23,911 nucleotides of DNA from a virus (taxonomy: Duplodnaviria > Heunggongvirae > Uroviricota > Caudoviricetes): IMG/VR virus record IMGVR_UViG_2526164594_000022; one strand, written 5' to 3'. Positions within the stretch are counted from its first letter, which is position 1, and every line of letters begins with the position of its first letter. The notes below the pieces were generated by a model that searched no databases, was not told the DNA's origin, and saw only the letters and a program-made list of their open reading frames with translations. The position numbers and the translations under genes were made by a program. Of the stretch, positions 9,203-22,336 are shown piece after piece.

Positions 9203-9687
9203 TTGTTCTTGCCCCCTTATTTCCAGACAGGGGGGGTATCTTAAGTTAACGTTACCCGCTGACGTCGATATTCTCGCGGAGAGCGATAACCCAACGCACT
9301 GTGCGGATGGTTTTCATTGTAATGTTCGATCGCCACTGCAAGATTATGCAATGCCGTTCTTACATTCGGTTTCGGCATGAACGCGATGTAGTCTTCCTTC
9401 ATCGTTTTCACGAACCTTTCTGCAATTCCATTACTCTGAGGACTGCTGATTGCCGTTGTGCAGGGCTCCAGATTCAACTCTCTGGCGAACTGCCGTGTTT
9501 CATGCGCTCTATACGCTGAACCGTTATCTGTCAGCCACTGGATGGACTGTTCCGGTACTTTATCGCCAAAGCGTTTTTCTATCGCTCCTAACATGACATC
9601 CTGCACTGTCGCTTTATCGTAACCTCCCGTGCTTGCGGCCCAGTCTATGGCTTCACGATCGCAACAGTCCAGGGCGATTCATCTGGG
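9203..9687 (-). mobile_element. IS2-family (IS3 superfamily) remnant: 3' end only, with terminal repeat
   Basis: Minus-strand translation ..[72 protein letters not shown]...[14 protein letters not shown] resembles IS2 InsD (OrfB) C-terminus. Homology stops at a stop codon near 9687. Reverse complement of ~9203-9235 resembles the IS2 right end (TGTCTGGAAATA..GGGGCAA). Confidence 0.65.
9241..9606 (-). pseudogene. Transposase OrfB C-terminal fragment (rve integrase core) of the IS2-family remnant
   Basis: 121-aa ORF with DDE-region motifs (..TDNGSAYRA.., ..[11 protein letters not shown].., [14 protein letters not shown]); N-terminal two-thirds missing. Confidence 0.7.
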
Positions 9688-10161: not shown

Positions 10162-11343
10162 ATGCCTTTAAACGATATGCAGATTCGCCGCGCTAAGCCT
10201 GAAGCTAAAGCCTATACATTTGGAGATGGGCTAGGGTTGTCATTACTTATAGAACCTAATGGAAGCAAGAGTTGGCGGTTCCGCTATCGCTATGCCGGCA
10301 AACCCAAAATGATCTCGCTTGGTGTTTACCCAACGATCACCCTTGCCGATGCTCGTTCCCGTCGTGATGAAGCTCGAAAACTTGTGGCAGAAGGAAAGAA
10401 CCCTAGTGAGGTTCGAAAAGAGCAAAAGCTAGCTATGCAAACAGAGTCAGAGAACGCCTTCGAAAAGATAGCCAGAGAGTGGCATCAACTTAAATCTGCT
10501 AAATGGTCGGCGGGATATGCATCAGACATCATGGAAGCGTTTAAGAACGACATTTTTCCTTATGTCGGAACAAGGCCTGTGGGAGAGATTAAACCGCTAG
10601 AGCTGCTGAACGTTCTGCGTAAAATTGAGAAACGTGGTGCGTTGGAGAAAATGCGCAAAGTGCGGCAGCGTTGCTCCGAAGTGTTTCGCTACGCAATTGC
10701 AACGGGTAGGGCGGAGTACAATCCTGCGGCTGATCTCTCCAGCGCTCTCGAAGTACACCAATCCAATCATTTCCCATTCCTAAAAGCTGATGAGATACCT
10801 GATTTTCTACGTGCCTTAGAGGGTTACTCCGGGAGTAAGCTTGTCCAGATAGCCACGAAATTACTGATGATTACGGGTGTGAGAACCATCGAATTACGCG
10901 CGGCATTATGGCAAGAATTTGATCTGGATAACGCTATTTGGGAAATTCCTGCTGAAAGGATGAAAATGCGTAGGCCACATCTTGTGCCCTTATCATCTCA
11001 AGCGGTAGATTTACTCAATGAACTCAAGATCATGACAGGGAACTATCGTTATGTTTTTCCAGGGCGGAACGATCCGAATAGGCCAATGAGCGAAGCGAGT
11101 ATAAATCAAGCCATTAAGCGTATTGGGTATGGAGGAAAAGTCACTGGACATGGTTTTCGTCATACCCTTTCTACAATCCTGCATGAGCAAGGTTTTGAGA
11201 GTGCTTGGATTGAAATCCAGTTGGCTCATGTAGATAAAAATTCTATTAGGGGGACTTATAACCATGCTCAATATTTTAGTGGAAGGAAGTCTATGATGGA
11301 CTGGTACAGTAATTTGATATTTGAAAGACTAAAAAGGAGTTAA
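10162..11343 (+). CDS. int: P4-type tyrosine integrase
   Basis: N-terminus MPLNDMQIRRAKPEAKAYTFGDGLGLSLLIEPNGSKSWRFRYR (P4-integrase-family arm-binding region); C-terminal catalytic residues in ..GHGFRHTLSTILHEQG..LAHVDKNSIRGTYNHAQY. ORF track starts at 10111 with an unlikely Cys-rich leader. Confidence 0.85.
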   Translation: MPLNDMQIRRAKPEAKAYTFGDGLGLSLLIEPNGSKSWRFRYRYAGKPKMISLGVYPTITLADARSRRDEARKLVAEGKNPSEVRKEQKLAMQTESENAFEKIAREWHQLKSAKWSAGYASDIMEAFKNDIFPYVGTRPVGEIKPLELLNVLRKIEKRGALEKMRKVRQRCSEVFRYAIATGRAEYNPAADLSSALEVHQSNHFPFLKADEIPDFLRALEGYSGSKLVQIATKLLMITGVRTIELRAALWQEFDLDNAIWEIPAERMKMRRPHLVPLSSQAVDLLNELKIMTGNYRYVFPGRNDPNRPMSEASINQAIKRIGYGGKVTGHGFRHTLSTILHEQGFESAWIEIQLAHVDKNSIRGTYNHAQYFSGRKSMMDWYSNLIFERLKRS

Positions 11344-11346
11344 TTT

Positions 11347-11763
11347 GTGTCTCAACCACTTTCGGAAATATTGACATGGGATGATGAACAATGGGAGGTA
11401 TTTGTCCATGATTGGCTTATTGTCTGTAAATCAGATGATTACCCGTGGAGCGAACGTTTGGGAGGAGCTGGAGATAAAGGTAGAGACGTTGTTGGATATA
11501 AATCGGATCCTAACGTAGAAGGTTATTCTTGGGATAATTATCAATGCAAACTGTACAAAAAAAGTTTAGGGTTCTCTGATGTTGTAGTTGAGTTTGGAAA
11601 ACTTATCTATTTTACTCTGAATGGTGATTATCCCATCCCTCAGAAGTACTTTTTTGTGGCACCCTATGATTTATCTACTACATTTTCTAATTTATTGAAA
11701 AATAAAAACGAGCTTAAAAAAGCAGTCCTTGATTCATGGGATTCAGCAATTTCAAAAAAATAA
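11347..11763 (+). CDS. Cargo protein, N-terminal part: Mrr-like PD-(D/E)xK restriction-endonuclease-fold domain (LmuA-like effector candidate); ORF ends in an A7 run
   Basis: GTG start preceded by SD AAGGAG. Motifs WEVFVHDWL ... GGAGDKGRDVVGY ... YQCKLY fit the E...D...(Q/E)xK catalytic arrangement of Mrr-type nucleases. Stop immediately follows an A7 homopolymer at 11754-11760. Confidence 0.55.
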   Translation: MSQPLSEILTWDDEQWEVFVHDWLIVCKSDDYPWSERLGGAGDKGRDVVGYKSDPNVEGYSWDNYQCKLYKKSLGFSDVVVEFGKLIYFTLNGDYPIPQKYFFVAPYDLSTTFSNLLKNKNELKKAVLDSWDSAISKK

Positions 11764-12353
11764 CTAAAAAGATTGATATTCCATTAGATGATGAAATAAA
11801 AAAATATATTGAGGATTTTGATTTTAGTATTTTTTACTCTCTACCCTTATCATTGATTTTAAATGATATTGCAAATACACACCTTTATTTTAAGTACTTT
11901 AACGAGCTGTATGTCGTGAGAATCCCTCCAAATGAAATTCCAACATACAATTCAAAAAAAGAGTCTGTATATGTTAATGCACTGCTTCAAGCCTATTCAG
12001 AGCATGGAAATAAAACTTATAGTTCTTTCTTAGAGCTTGATGATCCATACAGACGACACTTTAATAATAGTAGAAATGATTTTTATTTTGCATCTTCGCT
12101 TGAGGTTTTTGTCCGCGAAGTATTTAAAGATGATGTATTCAAAGCATTGAAATGTTACATTTCATCTTCAATTGAACCCGTCTTTTATGAAGACCATAAT
12201 TATGCATTTATTAGGTGTAATGCAGTCTTGAAGCAGGCTGTTCTGACACCAATTGCACATTCAGTACTATCAAAAATATGTGAAGCAAATGATAAAAAAG
12301 GAATATGCCATCATTTGGTTAATGATGGTGAAGTAATTTGGACGGTGAGATAA
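11736..12353 (+). CDS. Cargo protein, probable continuation of the preceding ORF in the +1 frame (C-terminal domain of the nuclease protein)
   Basis: Open frame passes through the same A7 run; one extra A would join ..DSWDSAISKK to ITKKIDIPLDDEIKKY.., giving a ~335-aa protein. Stop overlaps the next ATG (TAATG). Confidence 0.5.
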   Translation: MGFSNFKKITKKIDIPLDDEIKKYIEDFDFSIFYSLPLSLILNDIANTHLYFKYFNELYVVRIPPNEIPTYNSKKESVYVNALLQAYSEHGNKTYSSFLELDDPYRRHFNNSRNDFYFASSLEVFVREVFKDDVFKALKCYISSSIEPVFYEDHNYAFIRCNAVLKQAVLTPIAHSVLSKICEANDKKGICHHLVNDGEVIWTVR

Positions 12354-12811
12354 TGGTTAGAATTTATAATTCAAGTTTAGAAGTGGCATGTCGAATGGCG
12401 AAAGTGCTCGTCGCTATTTATCCTTCTTCATTAAGCCTTGAACGGCTTATTTGTTTTGATTTTATTTTAGTAAATCTTAAGGATTTTTTACCTGAAGAGA
12501 TTAGTCTTCATCCTCCAATACCCCGTAGAGATGCTCAGTTAGCCCTAAAACGAGAGATTGTTTTAGAATCATTGGCTTTGTTGCAAGGCTATGAACTAGC
12601 CTCAAAAATTTATACACATCGTGGTTTTGTATATAAAGCTTCTGAAAAAACATATGCATTTACAAATTCTCTACATAATGAATATGTTGCGCAGATGGAG
12701 CATAATATAAATTTGGTGGTTAAGTTATATAGTGATATTCCTGATGAGCAGTTGCAATCAATTATAAAAAATAAAATTGGCAAATATGATATGGAATTTA
12801 ATTATGAATGA
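12353..12811 (+). CDS. Small cargo protein (~152 aa), candidate middle component (LmuC-like by position)
   Basis: ATG at 12353 overlaps the upstream stop (TAATG), suggesting translational coupling; 3' end overlaps the next ATG (ATGAATGA). No motif recognised. Confidence 0.5.
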   Translation: MVRIYNSSLEVACRMAKVLVAIYPSSLSLERLICFDFILVNLKDFLPEEISLHPPIPRRDAQLALKREIVLESLALLQGYELASKIYTHRGFVYKASEKTYAFTNSLHNEYVAQMEHNINLVVKLYSDIPDEQLQSIIKNKIGKYDMEFNYE

Positions 12812-13436
12812 CAATTTTTTTACGTTCAGAAAAATAAAGGTAACCGGATTCAATAAATTAGATGCTATAATTGAATTTGGTTCTAAATTGACTATTTTAT
12901 ATGGTGGTTCTGACTCTGGAAAAACATACATATATTATTTGATTCGATATTTATTAGGGAGTGAAAAACTAAAAAATAAAGATATCGATCATGCTCAAGG
13001 TTATGATTTAGCCTATCTGGAATTTAATTTTCAAGGTAGGGTAATGACAATTGAGAGGTCTCTTCAGGATAGCGCCCATTACAGATTATATGATTCGAGC
13101 ATTGAAAATGTTAGTGAAGCTAATCTGTTGATGGTTTTTTCCAAAAGTGCTTCGTCTAAAAAGAGTTTTTCATCATACTTTTATGGTAGGTTGAATTTCA
13201 AAGAGGCTAAAGTAAGAACAAACTTAAGTAATACTCTTCATAAATTTAATCTTAATAATGTTTTTGAATTTTTTTGTATTGATGAATTAAGAGTGTTAAC
13301 TGAGAAGTCGTTAATTCTTTCTGATATTCCTAGCGAGGAGACAAAAAGAAAGTCTGAATTTAAATTCCTTTTAACTCAGAGAGATGATACTAACTCCTTA
13401 GCAGAAAAACCAAATAAAAAAGCAAGATATTTTTAA
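12804..13436 (+). CDS. SMC/Rad50/RecF-like ABC ATPase, N-terminal head half (Walker A); LmuB-like candidate, fragment 1
   Basis: MNDNFFTFRKIKVTGFNKLDAIIEFGSKLTILYGGSDSGKTYIYYLIRYLLG: the typical SMC_N-type start (..i.i.nF...) and P-loop GGSDSGKT. Ends at an in-frame TAA that begins an A7 run. Confidence 0.6.
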   Translation: MNDNFFTFRKIKVTGFNKLDAIIEFGSKLTILYGGSDSGKTYIYYLIRYLLGSEKLKNKDIDHAQGYDLAYLEFNFQGRVMTIERSLQDSAHYRLYDSSIENVSEANLLMVFSKSASSKKSFSSYFYGRLNFKEAKVRTNLSNTLHKFNLNNVFEFFCIDELRVLTEKSLILSDIPSEETKRKSEFKFLLTQRDDTNSLAEKPNKKARYF

Positions 13437-13466
13437 AAAAATCAAATTGCAAATATTTATGAGGAA

Positions 13467-13856
13467 TTGAAAGCGCAATTAATTTATCCTGAATATGATC
13501 AAGTCATTGTTTCAAGAGAACTTGAGAAAGTAGAGCAAGATATTGAATCATCGAAAGATATATTGAAAGGTATTGTTGATGCACTTGATGATAAGAAGCA
13601 ATTATTAAAAGAGTTAAGTGATGAATTATATTCAATCAGTGACAGGGAAAAATACTTATCATTACTCATTGAAAGATTTAGTCTTCTTAAAGACCAATAC
13701 TTTATAGATCTACAAAGAATAGATGTTGTATCACAGGCGAATTTCTATTTAAATAATTTTGCAGATATTTATTGTGAGTTCTGTAATACACCGCAAAAAA
13801 AGAAAATGAAATATCATATGATGATTGTTTTTTGTCGTGTAATGCAGAAAAATTGA
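13467..13856 (+). CDS. Coiled-coil segment of the SMC-like ATPase (fragment 2), ending in CxxC
   Basis: Same frame as the preceding ORF, separated by a single TAA. Heptad-rich sequence ..ELEKVEQDIESSKDILKGIVDALDDKKQLLKELSDELYSI.. ending ..CEFCNTPQKK at an A7 run (13795-13801). Confidence 0.45.
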   Translation: MKAQLIYPEYDQVIVSRELEKVEQDIESSKDILKGIVDALDDKKQLLKELSDELYSISDREKYLSLLIERFSLLKDQYFIDLQRIDVVSQANFYLNNFADIYCEFCNTPQKKKMKYHMMIVFCRVMQKN

Positions 13857-14056
13857 AAATCAAAAGCCAGCTGAAAGGATTAATTGAATCAATCGGATCT
13901 AATGTTCGCGAACATGAATTAATTATGTTAAGAAAAAATGATGTTAATGAAATTTATCAATCAGAAAAAAGTGATTTTAAGACGTTAGAAGATAAAAATA
14001 TAAAACAATACATTCATCTCTTGAATCACTTTATGAATATAAAGACAATCTTTTAA
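13832..14056 (+). CDS. SMC-like ATPase fragment 3 (second half of a putative zinc hook, CFLSC, plus coiled coil)
   Basis: With one extra A in the A7 run the reading becomes CEFCNTPQKKENEISYDDCFLSCNAEKLKIKSQLK.., i.e. CxxC-x16-CxxxC, reminiscent of Rad50/SMC hook motifs. Confidence 0.4.
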   Translation: MSCNAEKLKIKSQLKGLIESIGSNVREHELIMLRKNDVNEIYQSEKSDFKTLEDKNIKQYIHLLNHFMNIKTIF

Positions 14057-14622
14057 TGGATCACACAAAACATAGCATTCTATCTTCATTACAAGATAAA
14101 GAAGATGATGTTGACGAACTTAAATACTCCGCCGAGGACTTTGACTCCTTAACAGTAGCTGATTTGTATGATATAGAAATAGCGATGCAAGACTTTTTGA
14201 ATGATATAAATTTTGAAAATTCTAAAGATAACAAAGTGCGATTTGACGAAGATACATATGACTTTAATATCAATGGGAAACGCCGAGGAATGTTTGGTAA
14301 AGGTACCCGTGCAGTAATGCATGCTATATTTACCATTTGCTTTGCGGAATTTTTATCAAGAAAAGGGAATCCATTCATTGGATTTGTTGTGCTTGATAGT
14401 CCATTAGTGACGCACTTTGATAAAGATAGAGGGGGTTCTCTATCGGATGTTAATAGCGTCAGTCTCAGTGATTCATTTTATCACGCATTAATCAAAAGGG
14501 ACTATAATTTCCAGATTGTAATTCTTGAGAATAAAGGTCCGACGTTCCAAATAAAAATTAATGATGCAAATAAAATCCATAACTTAAATAAGAATGGAAG
14601 CTCTGGTTTTTATCCTGTTTAA
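14056..14622 (+). CDS. SMC-like ABC ATPase, C-terminal head half (signature-like and Walker B-like motifs), fragment 4
   Basis: ..GKRRGMFGKGTRAVMHAIFTICFAEFLSRKGNPFIGFVVLDSPLVTHFDKD..QIVILENKG: signature-like GKGTRA, hydrophobic stretch plus acidic residue (VVLDSP) in Walker B position. ATG overlaps the upstream stop (TAATG). Confidence 0.55.
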   Translation: MDHTKHSILSSLQDKEDDVDELKYSAEDFDSLTVADLYDIEIAMQDFLNDINFENSKDNKVRFDEDTYDFNINGKRRGMFGKGTRAVMHAIFTICFAEFLSRKGNPFIGFVVLDSPLVTHFDKDRGGSLSDVNSVSLSDSFYHALIKRDYNFQIVILENKGPTFQIKINDANKIHNLNKNGSSGFYPV

Positions 14623-14984
14623 TACATTAAAAATATAACTGCTAATTGGGGTGCTCGAAATTATATTTCGTTTCGAGCGCTCAGTTCATTTCTAAATAAT
14701 TTGCAAAATTATTTTGGGTACTTTCGCCTCTACACTTCCTTCGGGTGGTTCCACAATAATGGATCTCACCGGCGTTTGATATTTTATAATCTAACCCCTT
14801 AGCGCGCGCAGCCCCCCACGCCTGCTCGCTTCGCTTAACAGACTGGTTTTCATGCATTCCGCAAATCGTCTCAGAAGCCACCACACAAGGGCTTTCGCGT
14901 CAAAAATGGTGCATGAGAATCATGCGTTTTCATGCGCTATAGACATGCACTCATGCGCTCTCAGGCCAGCCAGGGAAAAGGCGT

Positions 14985-15031: not shown

Positions 15032-15304
15032 TCAGACAGGAATTTGCTGACGGCTTGACAGCTTTGACGCGGAGCCATAGCGATTGAGAGTTTGCTGTTG
15101 TTTTTCCGGCATTTGTGCTTTCTCTGATTCCTGTTCATTGCGCCGGGGCTTCATGATTATCGTATCCACACTTTCCAGTGCGGTAAATGTGTAGGAACAT
15201 TCAAGATTCTGGCACTGATACCATGAGCGTTTAACCGATGGTGCTTCATAGGCGGAGGTTCTGGCGTGTGCCGTCGTACCGCATTCGGGACATTTAAGTG
15301 CCAT
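15032..15304 (-). CDS. Ogr/Delta-family zinc-finger late-gene activator
   Basis: MALKCPECGTTAHARTSAYEAPSVKRSWYQCQNLECSYTFTALESV..: C-x2-C...C-x4-C pattern and AHARTS motif as in P2 Ogr / P4 Delta. Confidence 0.85.
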   Translation of the reverse strand: MALKCPECGTTAHARTSAYEAPSVKRSWYQCQNLECSYTFTALESVDTIIMKPRRNEQESEKAQMPEKQQQTLNRYGSASKLSSRQQIPV

Positions 15305-15309
15305 TAATA

Positions 15310-15861
15310 TTACTCCTGCATGCCGTTAATGTAATCCAGACGTTGCTGAAAGCGCAGTTGTTGTGCAGGGGTGTAAGAGCTCTGGCAATCACGAACCATC
15401 ATGGGGTCAGGCATCACACCGGATTCATCCAGAATCATACGATAATCCCCGGCAATTTCAGGCGGTGTTATTGCCAGCTGGCGAACCAGAGCATTGCGTA
15501 ATATACGGGACGCAACGTCAACCCCTCCGCGCCCCTTCAGGAACGGAGCCAGTGCAGATGTCAGGGCTGCTCCATTCGCCTGCATAAAATTGCTGAGAGC
15601 GTCTTCTGTGCAGGCCTCCATCAGTTGATGCTGCGAGTAAATGCATTCGCGCGCAGCACAGTTAATTTGCCATTTCAGCACATCCAGATGTTCCCGCTGT
15701 AATTCGAGCTGTCGAGCATAATCTGCTGGTTTTTCCATGGCAGTGAGGAGTGATTCTATCTGTTGTTCAACGGCTTTTCGGCTCTCACTATGTCCAGCCC
15801 ACAGAATACGGGCATTTCTAAAACTGATAAGCGCTTGGTCTGGAGTGACTCGGGCCATCAT
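15310..15861 (-). CDS. psu: Psu-like protein (polarity suppression / capsid decoration)
   Basis: 183-aa ORF between the sid-like and delta-like genes; partial resemblance to P4 Psu (..LKWQINCAARECI.., ..GAALTSALAPFL.., ..YTPAQQ..) by recall. Confidence 0.65.
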   Translation of the reverse strand: MMARVTPDQALISFRNARILWAGHSESRKAVEQQIESLLTAMEKPADYARQLELQREHLDVLKWQINCAARECIYSQHQLMEACTEDALSNFMQANGAALTSALAPFLKGRGGVDVASRILRNALVRQLAITPPEIAGDYRMILDESGVMPDPMMVRDCQSSYTPAQQLRFQQRLDYINGMQE

Positions 15862-15930
15862 ACTGCTTTCTCCTTCTCAGCACGTTCCTGACGAACCTTC
15901 ATTTTATGCATAGCTGCTGGAGAGAGTTTA

Positions 15931-16611
15931 TTACTGAAATCCAGACGGGCCGCATAATCCGGGGGCAACTCCCGCCAGTTTAAACACGGGGTCCTGTTCG
16001 GGCATCGCATCGTTAGTCAGAGCCGGTCTGGTGATATGTTTATGAATAAAATCTTTCAGCAGTGTGTCCGGGTCATTAACTGAATGCACCACACCGACAA
16101 CTGCGCTGGCTTCCCTGCCCATTGTTGATTTGAGCAGGCTTAGTGTCTGGATTAGTGCTTTTCCATGCGACTGCATAAAATCTTCCCAGATTTGTTTTGC
16201 GCGAATACCCACAAGGGTGTCGTGCGCGTGGATATACTTTCCGGCTAATTCCGCAGCCTCCTGCGGCAAAAGTGCATTTTCGCTTTCCTGAGCCGCCAGC
16301 AGCTCATCAAAATCCTCAAGCGTTTCTCGTCCCAGCGCAATTTCCGTGCGCAGTTTTTTCATTTCCTTTGAGACTACGCCCTGACTTTCACGAAATAGCG
16401 TGCGCCACTCCTCATTCAGGGCGTTCGTCGTGGCTTCCATTTCAGCGCGGCGCTGGCGGATTGTCGCAATATTATCCGCTGCCGCTTTTTGCTGACGACG
16501 TGCTTCAAGCCATGCAGATTTGGTGGCATTCACTTTCTCAAGCGCCTGTTGCGTCGAAACAGGGATAGAAATTTCAACGATCGGGTTATTGTTCTGTTCT
16601 GGGATTGTCAT
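15931..16611 (-). CDS. sid: Sid-like external scaffold (capsid size determination) protein
   Basis: 226-aa ORF first in the minus-strand late cluster; shares ..EEWRTLFRESQGVVSKEMKK.. with P4 Sid (..DDWRTAFRAAGGVLSDELKQ..) by recall. Confidence 0.6.
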   Translation of the reverse strand: MTIPEQNNNPIVEISIPVSTQQALEKVNATKSAWLEARRQQKAAADNIATIRQRRAEMEATTNALNEEWRTLFRESQGVVSKEMKKLRTEIALGRETLEDFDELLAAQESENALLPQEAAELAGKYIHAHDTLVGIRAKQIWEDFMQSHGKALIQTLSLLKSTMGREASAVVGVVHSVNDPDTLLKDFIHKHITRPALTNDAMPEQDPVFKLAGVAPGLCGPSGFQ

Positions 16612-18577: not shown

Positions 18578-18900
18578 TGATATGCTGTGAATCTCTTCTG
18601 GCACTTCGTGCCGCTCTGTATCGCCGTGCCGTTGCCTGTGCCTGGCTGGCTCTAAGCAATCATCAGGAACGTTATTCCGGCCTGACGCTCGCTGAACTTG
18701 AAGATGCCATAGCCCGCGAGCTGGAAGGGTTCTATCTGCGCCAGCATGGGCAGCAAAGAGGGCTGGAAATTGCCTGCGCGTTGCTTTCGGATCTGATGGA
18801 GTCGGGGCCGCTTAAAGCCTGTCCGGTTCTCTCACTGCTCGGAATGACGGTCATGGATGAACTTTGTTCCCGTCACCTCAACAAACCAGCGCTGCACTAA
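18577..18900 (+). CDS. Small hypothetical early protein (107 aa)
   Basis: ORF immediately upstream of the primase, in operon arrangement; no motif recognised. Confidence 0.5.
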
Positions 18901-18913
18901 GGAGGGCCGCACA

Positions 18914-21247
18914 ATGTCAGGAATGAAAGTTAGCCAGGCTGAGAAAGCAGCTCGGGGTCACTGGTCAAGAATTTTACCTGCGCTGGGCGTAAATGTACTG
19001 AAAAATCGGCACCAGCCCTGCCCGGTCTGTGCCGGGAAAGACCGCTTTCGATTTGATGACCAGGAAGGGCGGGGAACGTGGTTCTGTAACCAGTGCGGGG
19101 CAGGTGATGGCCTGGCGCTTGTAAGTAAAGTACTGGATGTAGGCATTAGTGAAGCGGCAGACAGAATAAACGGCATTATCGGAAACCTGCTGCCAGTATC
19201 TCAGGGAATGCTTGAATCTGGTTCTCCTGAAAAAGAGGACGGGAGAAAAGCTGCAGCAGTGCTGGCTGCCCGTTTGTTTGATAAGTCCCGCCAGACCACT
19301 GGCAATGCCTATCTGACGAGTAAAGGGTTTCCTGCACTGCCTTGCCGGGAATTAACCGCTATGCATAAAGTCGGTGGTGTGGCATTTCGCGCGGGAGATC
19401 TTGTCGTTCCATTGTATGCAGATGGAGAGCTGGTAAATCTGCAGTTAATCAACGCTAATGGGGGCAAATGCTTCCTTAAAGGCGGTCAGGTTAAGAATGC
19501 CTTTTACCTGGTTGAAGGTACTGCCAAAGCAGCCAAACGGCTCTGGATAGCGGAAGGATATGCCACCGCACTTACTATCAACTATCTGACTGGCGATGCT
19601 GTCATGGTGGCCTTTTCGTCCGTCAATTTCCTTTCCCTGGCGAGCATTGCCTGCAGTGAGTACCCAACGCACCAGATAATTATTGCTGCTGACCGCGATC
19701 TCAACGGTGCGGGGCAAACAAGGGGCGCAGCTGTTACCGGGGCCTGCAATTGCACAATGGCGCTCCCGCCTGTGTTTGGTGACTGGAACGATGCATTCAC
19801 GCAAAACGGCGAAGAAGCCACCCGGCATGCAATTCATGAAGTAATAAAACCAGCTGTTGCCAGCCCCTTCGACACAATGAGCGAAGCTGAATTTACCGCG
19901 CTGAGCGTCAGCGAAAAAGCGCAGAGGGTAGTGGATCACTATAAAAATTCACTGGCAGTAGACCCGAACGGGCAGCTCCTTTCACGCTATGAGGCGGGGG
20001 CCTGGAAAGTTATCTATTACGCCGATTTTGCCCGTGATGTCGCTGCGCTGTTTCAGCGCCTCGACGCACCTTTTTCATCCGCGAAAATTGCGTCTCTCGT
20101 GGAAACCCTCAAACTGATCGTTCCGCAACAGCAGAATCCGGCGCGGCAACTTATCGGATTTCGCAACGGTGTGCTCGATACCCGGACAGGATTGTTCAGC
20201 CCGCACGATAAGAAGCACTGGTTACGTACGCTGTGCGAGGTGGATTACACGCAGCCCGTTGACGGTGAGTCACTGGAAACCCATGCCCCGGCATTCTGGC
20301 GCTGGCTGGATCGTGCCGCAGGTTTTAATCCTGAAAAACGGGACATTATTCTGGCTGCATTGTTTATGGTGCTGGCTAACCGTTATGACTGGCAGCTGTT
20401 TCTGGAGGTCACTGGCCCTGGCGGAAGTGGAAAGAGTATTCTTGCTGAAATAGCAACCATGCTGGCGGGTGAAGATAACGCGACCTCGGCAACCATTGAA
20501 ATGCTTGAGTCGCCAAGAGAACGAGCTGCGTTAATAGGTTTTTCACTGATTCGACTTCCCGACCAGGAAAAGTGGAGCGGTGACGGGGCCGGACTAAAAG
20601 CCATCACTGGCGGCGATGCGGTATCCGTTGATCCCAAATATCAGAACGCCTATTCAACCCACATCCCGGCGGTCATCCTGGCTGTGAACAATAATCCGAT
20701 GCGCTTCACTGATCGTAGTGGTGGAGTTTCACGCCGAAGGGTGATCCTGCATTTCCCCGACCAGATAGCCCCGGAGGAACGCGATACCCAGCTCAAAGAG
20801 AAAATTGCCAGTGAGCTAGCGGTGATTGTTCGCCAGCTTATGCAGCGTTTCAGCGACCCAATGAGTGCCAGGACATTGCTTCAGTCACAGCAGAACTCCG
20901 ATGAAGCGCTCACCATCAAACGTGATGCTGATTCAGCTTTTGATTTTTGCGGCTACCTTGAGGTCCTACCTGACACCACGGGCATGTTTATGGGGAACGC
21001 TAATATTGTTCCACGTCAGCCTCGAACTTACCTCTACCATGCCTATCTGGTCTACATGGAGGCTAACGGCTATAAAAATACGCTCAGTCTGACCATGTTT
21101 GGCAAGGGGCTACCGTTAATGCTCAAGGAATATGGGCTGCAGTATGAGAAACGACGGACCAATCAAGGAATGCAGACTAATCTGGCCCTAAGAGAGGAAA
21201 GCAATGCTGACTGGTTGCCAAAATGCGATGAGTTTGCAGCGAAATAA
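18914..21247 (+). CDS. P4 alpha-type primase-helicase (zinc-binding primase, TOPRIM, D5-type NTPase)
   Basis: Strong SD AAGGAGGG before the ATG (MSGMKVSQ..). Zn motif CPVCAGKDRFRFDD..GTWFCNQCG, Walker A GPGGSGKS, 777 codons like P4 alpha. ORF track starts upstream at 18857. Confidence 0.9.
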   Translation: MSGMKVSQAEKAARGHWSRILPALGVNVLKNRHQPCPVCAGKDRFRFDDQEGRGTWFCNQCGAGDGLALVSKVLDVGISEAADRINGIIGNLLPVSQGMLESGSPEKEDGRKAAAVLAARLFDKSRQTTGNAYLTSKGFPALPCRELTAMHKVGGVAFRAGDLVVPLYADGELVNLQLINANGGKCFLKGGQVKNAFYLVEGTAKAAKRLWIAEGYATALTINYLTGDAVMVAFSSVNFLSLASIACSEYPTHQIIIAADRDLNGAGQTRGAAVTGACNCTMALPPVFGDWNDAFTQNGEEATRHAIHEVIKPAVASPFDTMSEAEFTALSVSEKAQRVVDHYKNSLAVDPNGQLLSRYEAGAWKVIYYADFARDVAALFQRLDAPFSSAKIASLVETLKLIVPQQQNPARQLIGFRNGVLDTRTGLFSPHDKKHWLRTLCEVDYTQPVDGESLETHAPAFWRWLDRAAGFNPEKRDIILAALFMVLANRYDWQLFLEVTGPGGSGKSILAEIATMLAGEDNATSATIEMLESPRERAALIGFSLIRLPDQEKWSGDGAGLKAITGGDAVSVDPKYQNAYSTHIPAVILAVNNNPMRFTDRSGGVSRRRVILHFPDQIAPEERDTQLKEKIASELAVIVRQLMQRFSDPMSARTLLQSQQNSDEALTIKRDADSAFDFCGYLEVLPDTTGMFMGNANIVPRQPRTYLYHAYLVYMEANGYKNTLSLTMFGKGLPLMLKEYGLQYEKRRTNQGMQTNLALREESNADWLPKCDEFAAK

Positions 21248-21379: not shown

Positions 21380-22336
21380 TTATTTTTGAATTGATTTAAA
21401 CATCCCATCGAGTTGTAATTTATTTATGTCGGTTTTCTTTATGGCTTTAATTAAGTTTTCAATAACTTCCAAAGAAAAAATTACATCTTTCTTTTCAATT
21501 CTAACCCCCCCGTGGTGGCTGCAAGCATTAAGGATGTCCTTTGTAATTTCAACATCATTTTTCATTAATGGTTCATAGTCCAGAGCCTCAATAACAGAAA
21601 CTAAACTACCTAGCATTTGCTCTTGGTATTGAACGTTGTTTAAATGCATTATACGAATATTAACAAGCATGAGAATATATTCTAAATATCTCCTGGCAGT
21701 ATTTCCTTTCTCTTGTAAAGAATCACGATCATATTCCTCAATACTCATGACTTCATTATGTAAAGAGGCTATTTTGTGCTCTGCTAATGAAATATTTATC
21801 GCATCCATGAGGTTTCGTGAGAAGCCTGTAGATGTAACATGACCATTTGCGGGCCTTGTTAAAATACATGTAGTATAGCAATTTATATTTGGGGTCTGGA
21901 TTGTCTCATTTACTCTTTTAACCGTTCTATAAACGTCTACCATATAAGAACCTGAGTTTTCAAATGAACATGAAGAGCATTTTGTATTATATATTCTATT
22001 TAGAGATAACTGATTGTGATAGTATCCCTTTAAGAAAGCATATATAGTGTCATTAAACTCGACAAACACAACGGACTCAATATATATATGGAATTTATCA
22101 TTGGGGTGCCACTCTAATTCAAGTCTTCTTGTAGAGTCATCAAAGGAAAAGTTTGAAATAAAATCCCAGTTACCTAAATCTATAAAATCAACGATATTTC
22201 TACCTGCACCATGGATATTTTTATTTATTAAAGTTGTGATTGAGTTTTTTATAATGTCCCAATCATGAATTTCATGATCGAATTTATTATTGATGGTTTC
22301 TTTTATTTGATTGGAAAAGTTTGAATAACTAGTCAC
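21380..22336 (-). CDS. Hypothetical 318-aa protein, AT-rich; second cargo gene of the P4-like element between primase and attR
   Basis: Long uninterrupted ORF in an AT-rich stretch convergent with the primase; no recognisable motif. Confidence 0.6.
   Translation of the reverse strand: MTSYSNFSNQIKETINNKFDHEIHDWDIIKNSITTLINKNIHGAGRNIVDFIDLGNWDFISNFSFDDSTRRLELEWHPNDKFHIYIESVVFVEFNDTIYAFLKGYYHNQLSLNRIYNTKCSSCSFENSGSYMVDVYRTVKRVNETIQTPNINCYTTCILTRPANGHVTSTGFSRNLMDAINISLAEHKIASLHNEVMSIEEYDRDSLQEKGNTARRYLEYILMLVNIRIMHLNNVQYQEQMLGSLVSVIEALDYEPLMKNDVEITKDILNACSHHGGVRIEKKDVIFSLEVIENLIKAIKKTDINKLQLDGMFKSIQK

Follow-up and report, generated by a model that had tools for sequence, protein, structure and literature searches.

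A decayed Lamassu operon, most likely non-functional, in a P4-like element of Escherichia coli O157:H7

Introduction

ABC-3C, DdmABC and LmuACB are synonyms for the same defence systems, known as Lamassu. In two described examples, Vibrio cholerae DdmABC (9NY5/9NYG/9NXX) and Salmonella enterica LmuACB (9HQU/9HQX; 9HQU was taken as the Salmonella complex from its Foldseek description), the genes are arranged in the order A-C-B with overlapping stops and starts, LmuB is about 600 amino acids (aa) long and carries a Walker A, a signature-like motif, a Walker B and a CxxC hook, and LmuA joins a PD-(D/E)xK nuclease to a helical C-terminal domain (CTD). Here we analyzed the viral record IMGVR_UViG_2526164594_000022 of IMG/VR (23,911 nucleotides (nt); "the window" hereafter denotes this whole stretch), in which a cassette at positions 11347-14622, carried by a P4-like element, shows the same gene order and the same kind of overlaps. 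We found that lmuA and lmuB of this cassette are broken at four positions, and the data point to a pseudogenised Lamassu relic that very probably confers no protection.

A Lamassu-related locus of E. coli is already in print. The Domainator paper (Johnson et al., NAR 2024, PMC11754643) collected the Psu-integrase hotspots of 2718 E. coli genomes and found that the commonest cluster (cluster 1), with 259 instances of "3 to 9 CDSs", was "related to Lamassu systems" by PADLOC. A representative termed "Lamassu-var" was cloned from CP038295 (4116517-4120474) and gave smaller T2, T4, T6 and RB69 plaques at the highest dilutions (PMC11754643). We show below that this published locus and the cassette of the window are the same.

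Gene content of the cassette and its assignment to Lamassu

The cassette consists of the following co-oriented open reading frames (ORFs), with lmuC located between the lmuA and lmuB fragments.

11347-11763, plus strand: lmuA 5' fragment, nuclease domain; 138 codons, GTG start, premature TAA at 11761-11763
11736-12353, plus strand: lmuA 3' fragment, helical C-terminal domain CTD6 (Pfam PF20282 CTD6, E=7.7e-30)
12353-12811, plus strand: lmuC, middle component MC2, 152 aa (Pfam PF20288 MC2, E=6e-30; PADLOC LmuC PDLC03871, E=2.5e-36)
12804-13436, plus strand: lmuB fragment 1, ABC head N-lobe with Walker A (PADLOC LmuB PDLC03863, E=8.4e-50, profile 3-199 of 610; Pfam AAA_23)
13467-13856, plus strand: lmuB fragment 2, ascending coiled-coil arm and CxxC zinc hook, CEFC (PADLOC LmuB, E=2e-16, profile 230-329)
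13832-14056, plus strand: lmuB fragment 3, descending coiled-coil arm, placed by alignment with intact homologues
14056-14622, plus strand: lmuB fragment 4, ABC head C-lobe (PADLOC LmuB, E=5.1e-37, profile 428-608)

PADLOC and Pfam models recognized all three genes strongly, far beyond chance (PADLOC E-values of 9e-41 to 2e-16, and lower for the lmuA 3' fragment and lmuB fragment 1). RefSeq labels the cassette genes as ABC-three component system proteins, and in the record of strain Sakai ECs_0293 is an AAA ATPase pseudogene. NCBIfam held no model for any cassette fragment and the matches of the cassette in PHROGs were only to families of unknown function.

The two lmuA fragments match consecutive parts of one PADLOC model, the 5' fragment covering profile positions 10-140 of 336 (LmuA PDLC03852, E=9e-41) and the 3' fragment positions 141-333 (E=3.9e-44); the 3' ORF opens at 11736, and its true continuation of the nuclease gene runs from about 11758. 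The nuclease motifs WEVFVHD, GDKGRDVVGY and QCK are found at nt 11392, 11470 and 11542, respectively, and residues D43, D47, Q66 and K68 are invariant across 53 LmuA homologues. CTD6, the domain that docks LmuA on LmuB/LmuC, is present in all 53 and, like MC2 of LmuC, scores well above its Pfam cutoff (104.5 bits vs 26.9 and 104.4 vs 26.4 for the two domains). Mrr_cat (PF04471), a PD-(D/E)xK fold whose catalytic core is D...(D/E/Q)xK, is matched only weakly by the window fragment (E=0.2; 12.2 bits, under the 21-bit cutoff), and this model is matched by 6 of the 53 homologues, with a best value of 1.6e-6. Since an LmuA profile found no match among PDB sequences, comparison of folds was needed. 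The AlphaFold model of an intact LmuA homologue (67% identical, pLDDT 94) retrieved solved LmuA chains as its top Foldseek matches (9nxx, 9ny1, 9hqx_A and 9uxl_C), followed by the PD-(D/E)xK nucleases Cap4, MspJI and FokI; no Mrr structure appeared by name among these matches. PADLOC, Pfam and the fold comparison thus describe an LmuA with an N-terminal effector domain and a C-terminal docking/oligomerisation domain.

lmuC is the only intact gene in the cassette, and its 152-aa product has the same length as in homologues. Its start overlaps the stop of lmuA (TAATG, 12351-12355) and its stop overlaps the start of lmuB (ATGAATGA, 12804-12811).

Three of the four ATPase pieces (1, 2 and 4) match consecutive stretches of one LmuB model, while fragment 3 (74 aa) has no PADLOC match of its own. 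The Walker A sequence GGSDSGKT lies at 12903-12926 in fragment 1, the signature-like GKGTRA and the Walker B VVLDSP lie at nt 14296 and 14386 in fragment 4, the CEFC...CFLSC stretch straddles the junction of fragments 2 and 3, and the stop of fragment 3 overlaps the ATG of fragment 4 (TAATG, 14054-14058). Read together, the pieces carry what characterizes LmuB, an ABC ATPase of about 600 aa with Walker A, signature-like motif, Walker B, coiled coil and CxxC. The D-S of Walker B fits the published definition of short Lamassu LmuB, in which Walker B is hhhhD[Q/S/T/E] and the CxxC hook may be present or absent (PMC12663957).

Single-sequence searches of PDB with homologues of LmuB, LmuA and LmuC gave nothing meaningful, and only a profile of LmuB homologues reached solved Lamassu structures. 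Its best match, spanning nearly the whole protein, was Salmonella LmuB (9hqu_A, 3.3e-18); V. cholerae LmuB (9ny5_D) came next, and Rad50 and SMC heads followed. The alignment with 9hqu_A pairs GGSDSGK with GASRTGK, the two CxxC hooks with one another, GKGSR with GSGS and LLDSP with ILDQP. The model of the intact LmuB of Proteus (P0001; ~85-88% aa identity, pLDDT 86) consists of a head, a pair of long helices (233-318 and 339-439) and a loop for the hook, and its top fold matches are the LmuB chains of 9uxh, 9hqu and 9nyg, then Rad50. The chain 9a6c_A, from an integrative model of YYDD-YYDB, ranked second among these matches.

The ABC-ATPase defence systems Gabija, PARIS, Septu and the OLD-family nucleases were also considered as identities of the cassette. 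The N-terminal ATPase fragment does match GajA (1.9e-6), AriA (1.2e-5) and PtuA (1.7e-3) weakly in PADLOC, because the ABC fold is shared. However, LmuB scores better by more than 40 orders of magnitude, and its matches extend over head, coiled coil and C-lobe; the accompanying genes encode LmuA (CTD6) and LmuC (MC2) rather than GajB, AriB or PtuB; and the fold matches of the intact Proteus LmuB put LmuB chains first. Gabija, PARIS and Septu were rejected on these far weaker scores and on the partner genes, and we regard a system other than Lamassu as having almost no chance of being correct. Together, the profile and fold data identify the cassette, at the level of sequence and predicted structure, as a short (type II) Lamassu / ABC-3C operon of the order lmuA-lmuC-lmuB.

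The chains of the V. cholerae and Salmonella systems rank first by fold for both modelled homologues, yet in sequence the resemblance is remote, with 14-16% identity for LmuB in the fold alignments. The effector of the cassette is putatively Mrr-like and is accompanied by CTD6 and MC2, whereas V. cholerae LmuA has a Cap4-type nuclease and Salmonella LmuA is described as PD-(D/E)xK. Walker B has D-S in place of D-Q, and the genes of the cassette are disrupted. At the family level, the cassette does not differ from the ABC-3C systems described by Krishnan, Burroughs, Iyer and Aravind, as PF20288 MC2 and PF20282 CTD6 are both present. With Rad50/SbcC-Mre11/SbcD it shares the ABC head, the antiparallel coiled coil and the CxxC zinc hook, but its coiled coil is much shorter, it lacks an Mre11/SbcD partner, and its partners are LmuC and a toxic nuclease that is kept sequestered.

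A sequence-only reading of the same DNA had proposed a Lamassu-like system (Mrr-effector type), or a related SMC-based one, in the int-psu hotspot of a P4-like satellite, a proposal now borne out by PADLOC, Pfam, RefSeq and the structural matches. The motifs that it quoted are all present where it placed them, as are the TAATG and ATGAATGA overlaps. Its PD-(D/E)xK nuclease-type effector is recognized as LmuA by PADLOC and by the fold matches of the homologue to solved LmuA, Cap4, MspJI and FokI; its coupled protein of about 150 aa turned out to be the 152-aa LmuC (MC2 and PADLOC LmuC); and the pieces that it concatenated into an SMC/Rad50-like ATPase are four pieces of a PADLOC LmuB. Two of the checks that it suggested gave the expected result, the profile searches (Pfam and the LmuA/LmuC/LmuB models) by recognizing all three genes and the structure prediction, carried out on the intact Proteus homologue, by returning a head, a coiled coil and a hook loop with LmuB chains ranked first.

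Four lesions interrupt lmuA and lmuB

Uninterrupted genes are needed for a system-level Lamassu call and for function; here, lmuA and lmuB are both split. Gap-by-gap DNA alignment with intact Proteus and Pantoea-type cassettes revealed exactly four frame-destroying differences, three 1-nt deletions and one TTA>TAA change.

11754-11760, plus strand: lesion 1, 1-nt deletion leaving A7; shifts lmuA to the -1 frame and separates the nuclease domain from CTD6
13434-13436, plus strand: lesion 2, TTA>TAA (T>A at 13435); lmuB codon 211, nonsense after the head N-lobe
13795-13801, plus strand: lesion 3, one A lost, leaving A7; lmuB, five codons after the CxxC hook
13994-13998, plus strand: lesion 4, one A lost, leaving A5; lmuB, returning coiled-coil arm

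Repair of the four positions restores lmuA and lmuB to exactly 335 and 606 codons; in lmuA, adding back a single A suffices to give the 335 aa of intact homologues. The sequence-only reading had noted that the ATPase was split but missed the split of the nuclease gene (11347-11763/11736-12353), and it understated the damage, which amounts to four inactivating lesions.

The unbroken form of the operon is found in close and distant relatives. Proteus mirabilis (L003) carries uninterrupted genes of 335, 152 and 606 aa, 89% identical to the window in nucleotide sequence, in another island near smpB. The SRR1122541 and ERR019441 assemblies (L005 and L006) likewise carry unbroken 335/152/606-aa genes; they and Pantoea alhagi (L004) have an identical LmuB, are 79% identical to the window in nucleotide sequence and show the same integrase...delta/psu/sid layout, with lmuA of the Pantoea locus called shorter (201 aa). 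More widely, an alignment-based scan of genome contigs (the same scan with Proteus LmuB alone gave no matches) yielded 56 related loci from many phyla, of which 52 have unbroken lmuA-lmuC-lmuB in that order; therefore, the split state is the exception. The remaining four have no lmuA- or lmuC-like ORF upstream, and in three of these the match starts at the edge of the locus. Across the intact family the ratio of nonsynonymous to synonymous substitution rates (dN/dS) is 0.06-0.12 for all three genes.

Four distant relatives (L029, L049, L059 and L061) look interrupted, in that lmuC and lmuB are separated by a gap or the ORF of lmuB is shortened. E. coli may not be the only species in which operons of this Lamassu clade occasionally decay or receive insertions.

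Distribution of the lesions in E. coli

The window comes from E. coli O157:H7; its 3.4-kb cassette region is 100% identical in many complete O157:H7 chromosomes, e.g. strain 272 (NZ_CP018239), and in the Sakai record the element carrying the cassette (genes ECs_0290-0293) is annotated "prophage Sp2, P4-like phage". Sensitive blastn of 5426 complete E. coli genomes, reaching down to ~65-70% identity, found no other copy of the cassette, intact or not; all 310 records were at least 99% identical to the window.

The lesions differ in their distribution among these records. Lesion 1 is present in all 309 E. coli records examined for it, O55:H7 included, and lesion 4, common to O55:H7 and O157:H7, in 306. 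Lesion 2, the distribution of which was followed in five compared alleles and by RefSeq labels, is found in all three O157:H7 alleles compared and in no O55:H7 allele; codon 211 is Leu in the O55:H7, Proteus and Pantoea-type copies of lmuB. The A7 allele of the window at lesion 3 occurs in 66 of 309 records, the other 243 having mostly A8, which is also the state of Sakai, O55:H7 and Proteus. A further private indel is found in each of O55:H7 DEC5B, O55:H7 RM12579 and strain 2017C-4109; among the alleles compared, private indels lie at positions 11804, 13932 and 13970.

Three of the four lesions are losses of single bases in A-runs, a typical class of sequencing error, and one noisy assembly (ATCC 43888) contains many extra frameshifts, which raises the question of whether homopolymer errors in sequencing or assembly have produced the breaks and the genes are really intact. 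Lesions 1 and 4 are, however, identical in 309/309 and 306/309 records from many laboratories and platforms, the reference genomes Sakai and EDL933 among them; lesion 2 does not involve an indel but a substitution; and the alleles of lesion 3 split 66 vs 243, each seen in many independent assemblies. Because identical lesions recur in hundreds of independent assemblies, sequencing error is as good as excluded as the cause of the breaks.

From this distribution we infer that the lesions accumulated stepwise, from O55:H7 to O157:H7 and then to the sublineage of the window, lesions 1 and 4 probably being the oldest, followed by the nonsense codon and by lesion 3. The E. coli cassettes differ among themselves by 7 nonsynonymous, 1 nonsense and 1 synonymous substitutions and by 4 private indels. 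Because of this excess of non-silent changes, compared with the dN/dS of the intact family, the substitution pattern is that of a gene set released from selection. The lesions would then have arisen one after another following relaxed selection, mostly by loss of a single A in A-runs. A dead system would thus have been kept while a major pathogen lineage emerged, decaying further step by step and leaving a few indels that mark lineages.

In the dead lmuB, the A-runs vary in length among O157:H7/O55:H7 sublineages (L007-L011 compared). These length differences could serve as simple lineage markers, and some of them may be assembly errors of single genomes. A phase-variable contingency locus was rejected, as a nonsense codon created by substitution and a lesion in an A5 run cannot revert by slippage.

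Functional state of the cassette

The way in which the intact ancestor would have worked can be inferred from the solved homologous systems (PMC12663957; bioRxiv 10.1101/2025.03.14.643221). A dimer of LmuB, with Rad50-like head, antiparallel coiled coil and CxxC zinc hook, would together with LmuC hold the CTD of LmuA and keep the nuclease monomeric and inactive. DNA ends or aberrant DNA of phage replication, with ATP-driven engagement of the heads, would trigger the release of LmuA, which would oligomerise via its CTD and cut DNA indiscriminately with its PD-(D/E)xK domain, so that the infection is aborted. In the allele of the window the nuclease is uncoupled from its docking domain and the LmuB sensor is broken into four pieces. 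Together, the lesions and their history make it very probable that the cassette is a pseudogenised Lamassu relic, most likely non-functional and giving no protection in this strain.

Several observations weigh against this conclusion and would fit a split or leaky Lamassu that still works, in which -1 frameshifting or transcriptional slippage and reassembly of the LmuB pieces provide defence at a low dose. Lesions 1 and 3 are located in the heptamers A_AAA_AAA and A_AAA_AAG (in the contexts TC A_AAA_AAA TAA and CA A_AAA_AAG), in a register in which a -1 slip would restore the frame and yield the exact ancestral protein sequence. Through the TAATG overlap between the stop of fragment 3 and the ATG of fragment 4, translation of the head C-lobe could be coupled. 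Rad50 heads can be rebuilt when their N and C halves are supplied as separate pieces. In addition, the published O55:H7 allele is reported to have made T2, T4, T6 and RB69 plaques smaller (PMC11754643), and that allele is already frameshifted in lmuA and lmuB.

On the other side, the TAA at codon 211 of lmuB in the window allele cannot be bypassed by slippage, and lesion 4 lies in an A5 run with no slippery heptamer. At the two slippery A7 sites, the RNA that follows does not fold more stably than shuffled sequence does (z = 0.32 and 0.75), and programmed frameshifting was rejected, as neither site is followed by a stimulatory RNA structure. Independent disruptive mutations are still accumulating in separate sublineages, with 8 non-silent vs 1 silent change within E. 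coli, and the published phenotype is marginal. We therefore consider a leaky but working Lamassu unlikely by a wide margin, and meaningful activity of the window allele no more probable, if not somewhat less so. A particular form of the idea, in which low-dose expression by -1 slips and TAATG coupling keeps the toxic nuclease tolerable and explains the weak T-even phenotype, appears to us more doubtful still; in the window allele, the TAA at codon 211 would in addition have to be read through or tolerated. A pseudogenised relic remains the reading that we favour for the window.

Relation to the published "Lamassu-var" locus

CP038295, the source of "Lamassu-var", belongs to E. coli O55:H7 TB182A. 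The clone has the same sequence as the RM12579 allele and is 99.7% identical to the window; it contains the frameshift of lmuA and two frameshifts in lmuB. Its locus is that of the window, with the same integrase/delta/psu flanks, the same frameshift in lmuA and lesion 4. The alleles differ in that two lesions of the window, TAA at 13434-13436 and the deletion leaving A7 at 13795-13801, are absent from the clone, whereas the clone lacks an A at 13970 that the window retains. The 259 instances with "3 to 9 CDSs" (PMC11754643) fit the 309 fragmented copies found here.

The main text of PMC11754643 contains no mention of a frameshift, pseudogene, split or truncation, and the paper presents "Lamassu-var" as a functional variant, whereas our alignments show a broken copy of a standard three-gene operon. 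The suggestion of the sequence-only reading that the cassette could be a divergent or undescribed variant did not hold, since existing PADLOC and Pfam models, RefSeq labels and the published "Lamassu-var" cover the locus: databases and the literature already contain the family, the subtype domains, the hotspot and this exact locus, and no undescribed variant is involved. What the present analysis adds is that the published locus is a decayed standard LmuACB operon. "Lamassu-var" is abundant because the clonal O55:H7/O157:H7 lineage has been oversampled, and the weak phenotype of the clone is to be read accordingly. Defence pseudogenes have been reported to be rare in P4-like satellites (bioRxiv 10.64898/2026.02.27.708500), and the decayed cassette is a clear counter-example.

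Genomic setting of the cassette

The AT-rich block that had been noticed between the P4-type integrase and delta/psu/sid is confirmed by a drop in GC content to 0.27-0.34 over 11501-14500 vs 0.44-0.55 in the flanks, and by border genes recognized by Pfam.

10162-11343, plus strand: P4-type tyrosine integrase, left border (Pfam Arm-DNA-bind_3, Phage_int_M and Phage_integrase)
14649-14682, plus strand: terminator-like hairpin closing the cassette; 13-bp stem and T-rich tail, consensus match only
15032-15304, minus strand: Ogr/Delta, right border (Pfam Ogr_Delta, 1e-16)
15310-15861, minus strand: Psu, right border (Pfam Psu, 4.8e-42)
15931-16611, minus strand: sid-like gene, right border; its Psu match is weak, 27.2 bits, just under the Pfam cutoff of 27.4

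Cargo between a P4-type integrase and delta/psu/sid is the arrangement that defines the int-psu hotspot of P4-like satellites, the same element bearing alpA-like, Icd-like and primase-helicase (alpha) genes as well. RefSeq annotation of the identical locus in strain 272 agrees with the integrase call at 10162-11343 and, beyond the sid-like gene, lists helix-turn-helix, Icd-like, DUF5375 and primase-helicase genes on the satellite. The hairpin begins 27 nt past the lmuB stop. ARAGORN found no tRNA gene in the window, and the attachment tRNA was not located. Because Psu of the element is only ~31% identical to P4 Psu (PMC11754643), the element that bears the cassette is assigned, by sequence, to a divergent P4-like lineage. 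Because RefSeq marks the sid-like gene (15931-16611, minus strand; also 15858-16010) as frameshifted, the P4-like element is itself in decay, as would fit an island that is cryptic and immobile.

Upstream of the P4-like element, a gene for an AraC-family regulator (8456-9199) lies in a stretch of 35% GC and is followed by a truncated insertion sequence/integrase-core fragment (9241-9606, minus strand), which directly precedes the P4-type integrase. Further upstream, a lambdoid prophage remnant contains an intact gene (6859-7632, minus strand) for a 257-aa GIY-YIG protein, which matches the PADLOC model of PD-T4-3, a single-gene defence system, nearly end to end (E=2e-140) and also matches Pfam LEM-3_GIY-YIG. 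As judged from these matches, the window apparently holds one intact defence gene, PD-T4-3-like, beside the dead Lamassu. In a second AT-rich block (29-35% GC), an orphan ORF of 318 aa (21380-22336, minus strand) stands just after the P4-like primase-helicase gene (18857-21247); it had no match in Pfam, PADLOC or NCBIfam and only a marginal one in PHROGs, and the satellite may have a second cargo slot here.

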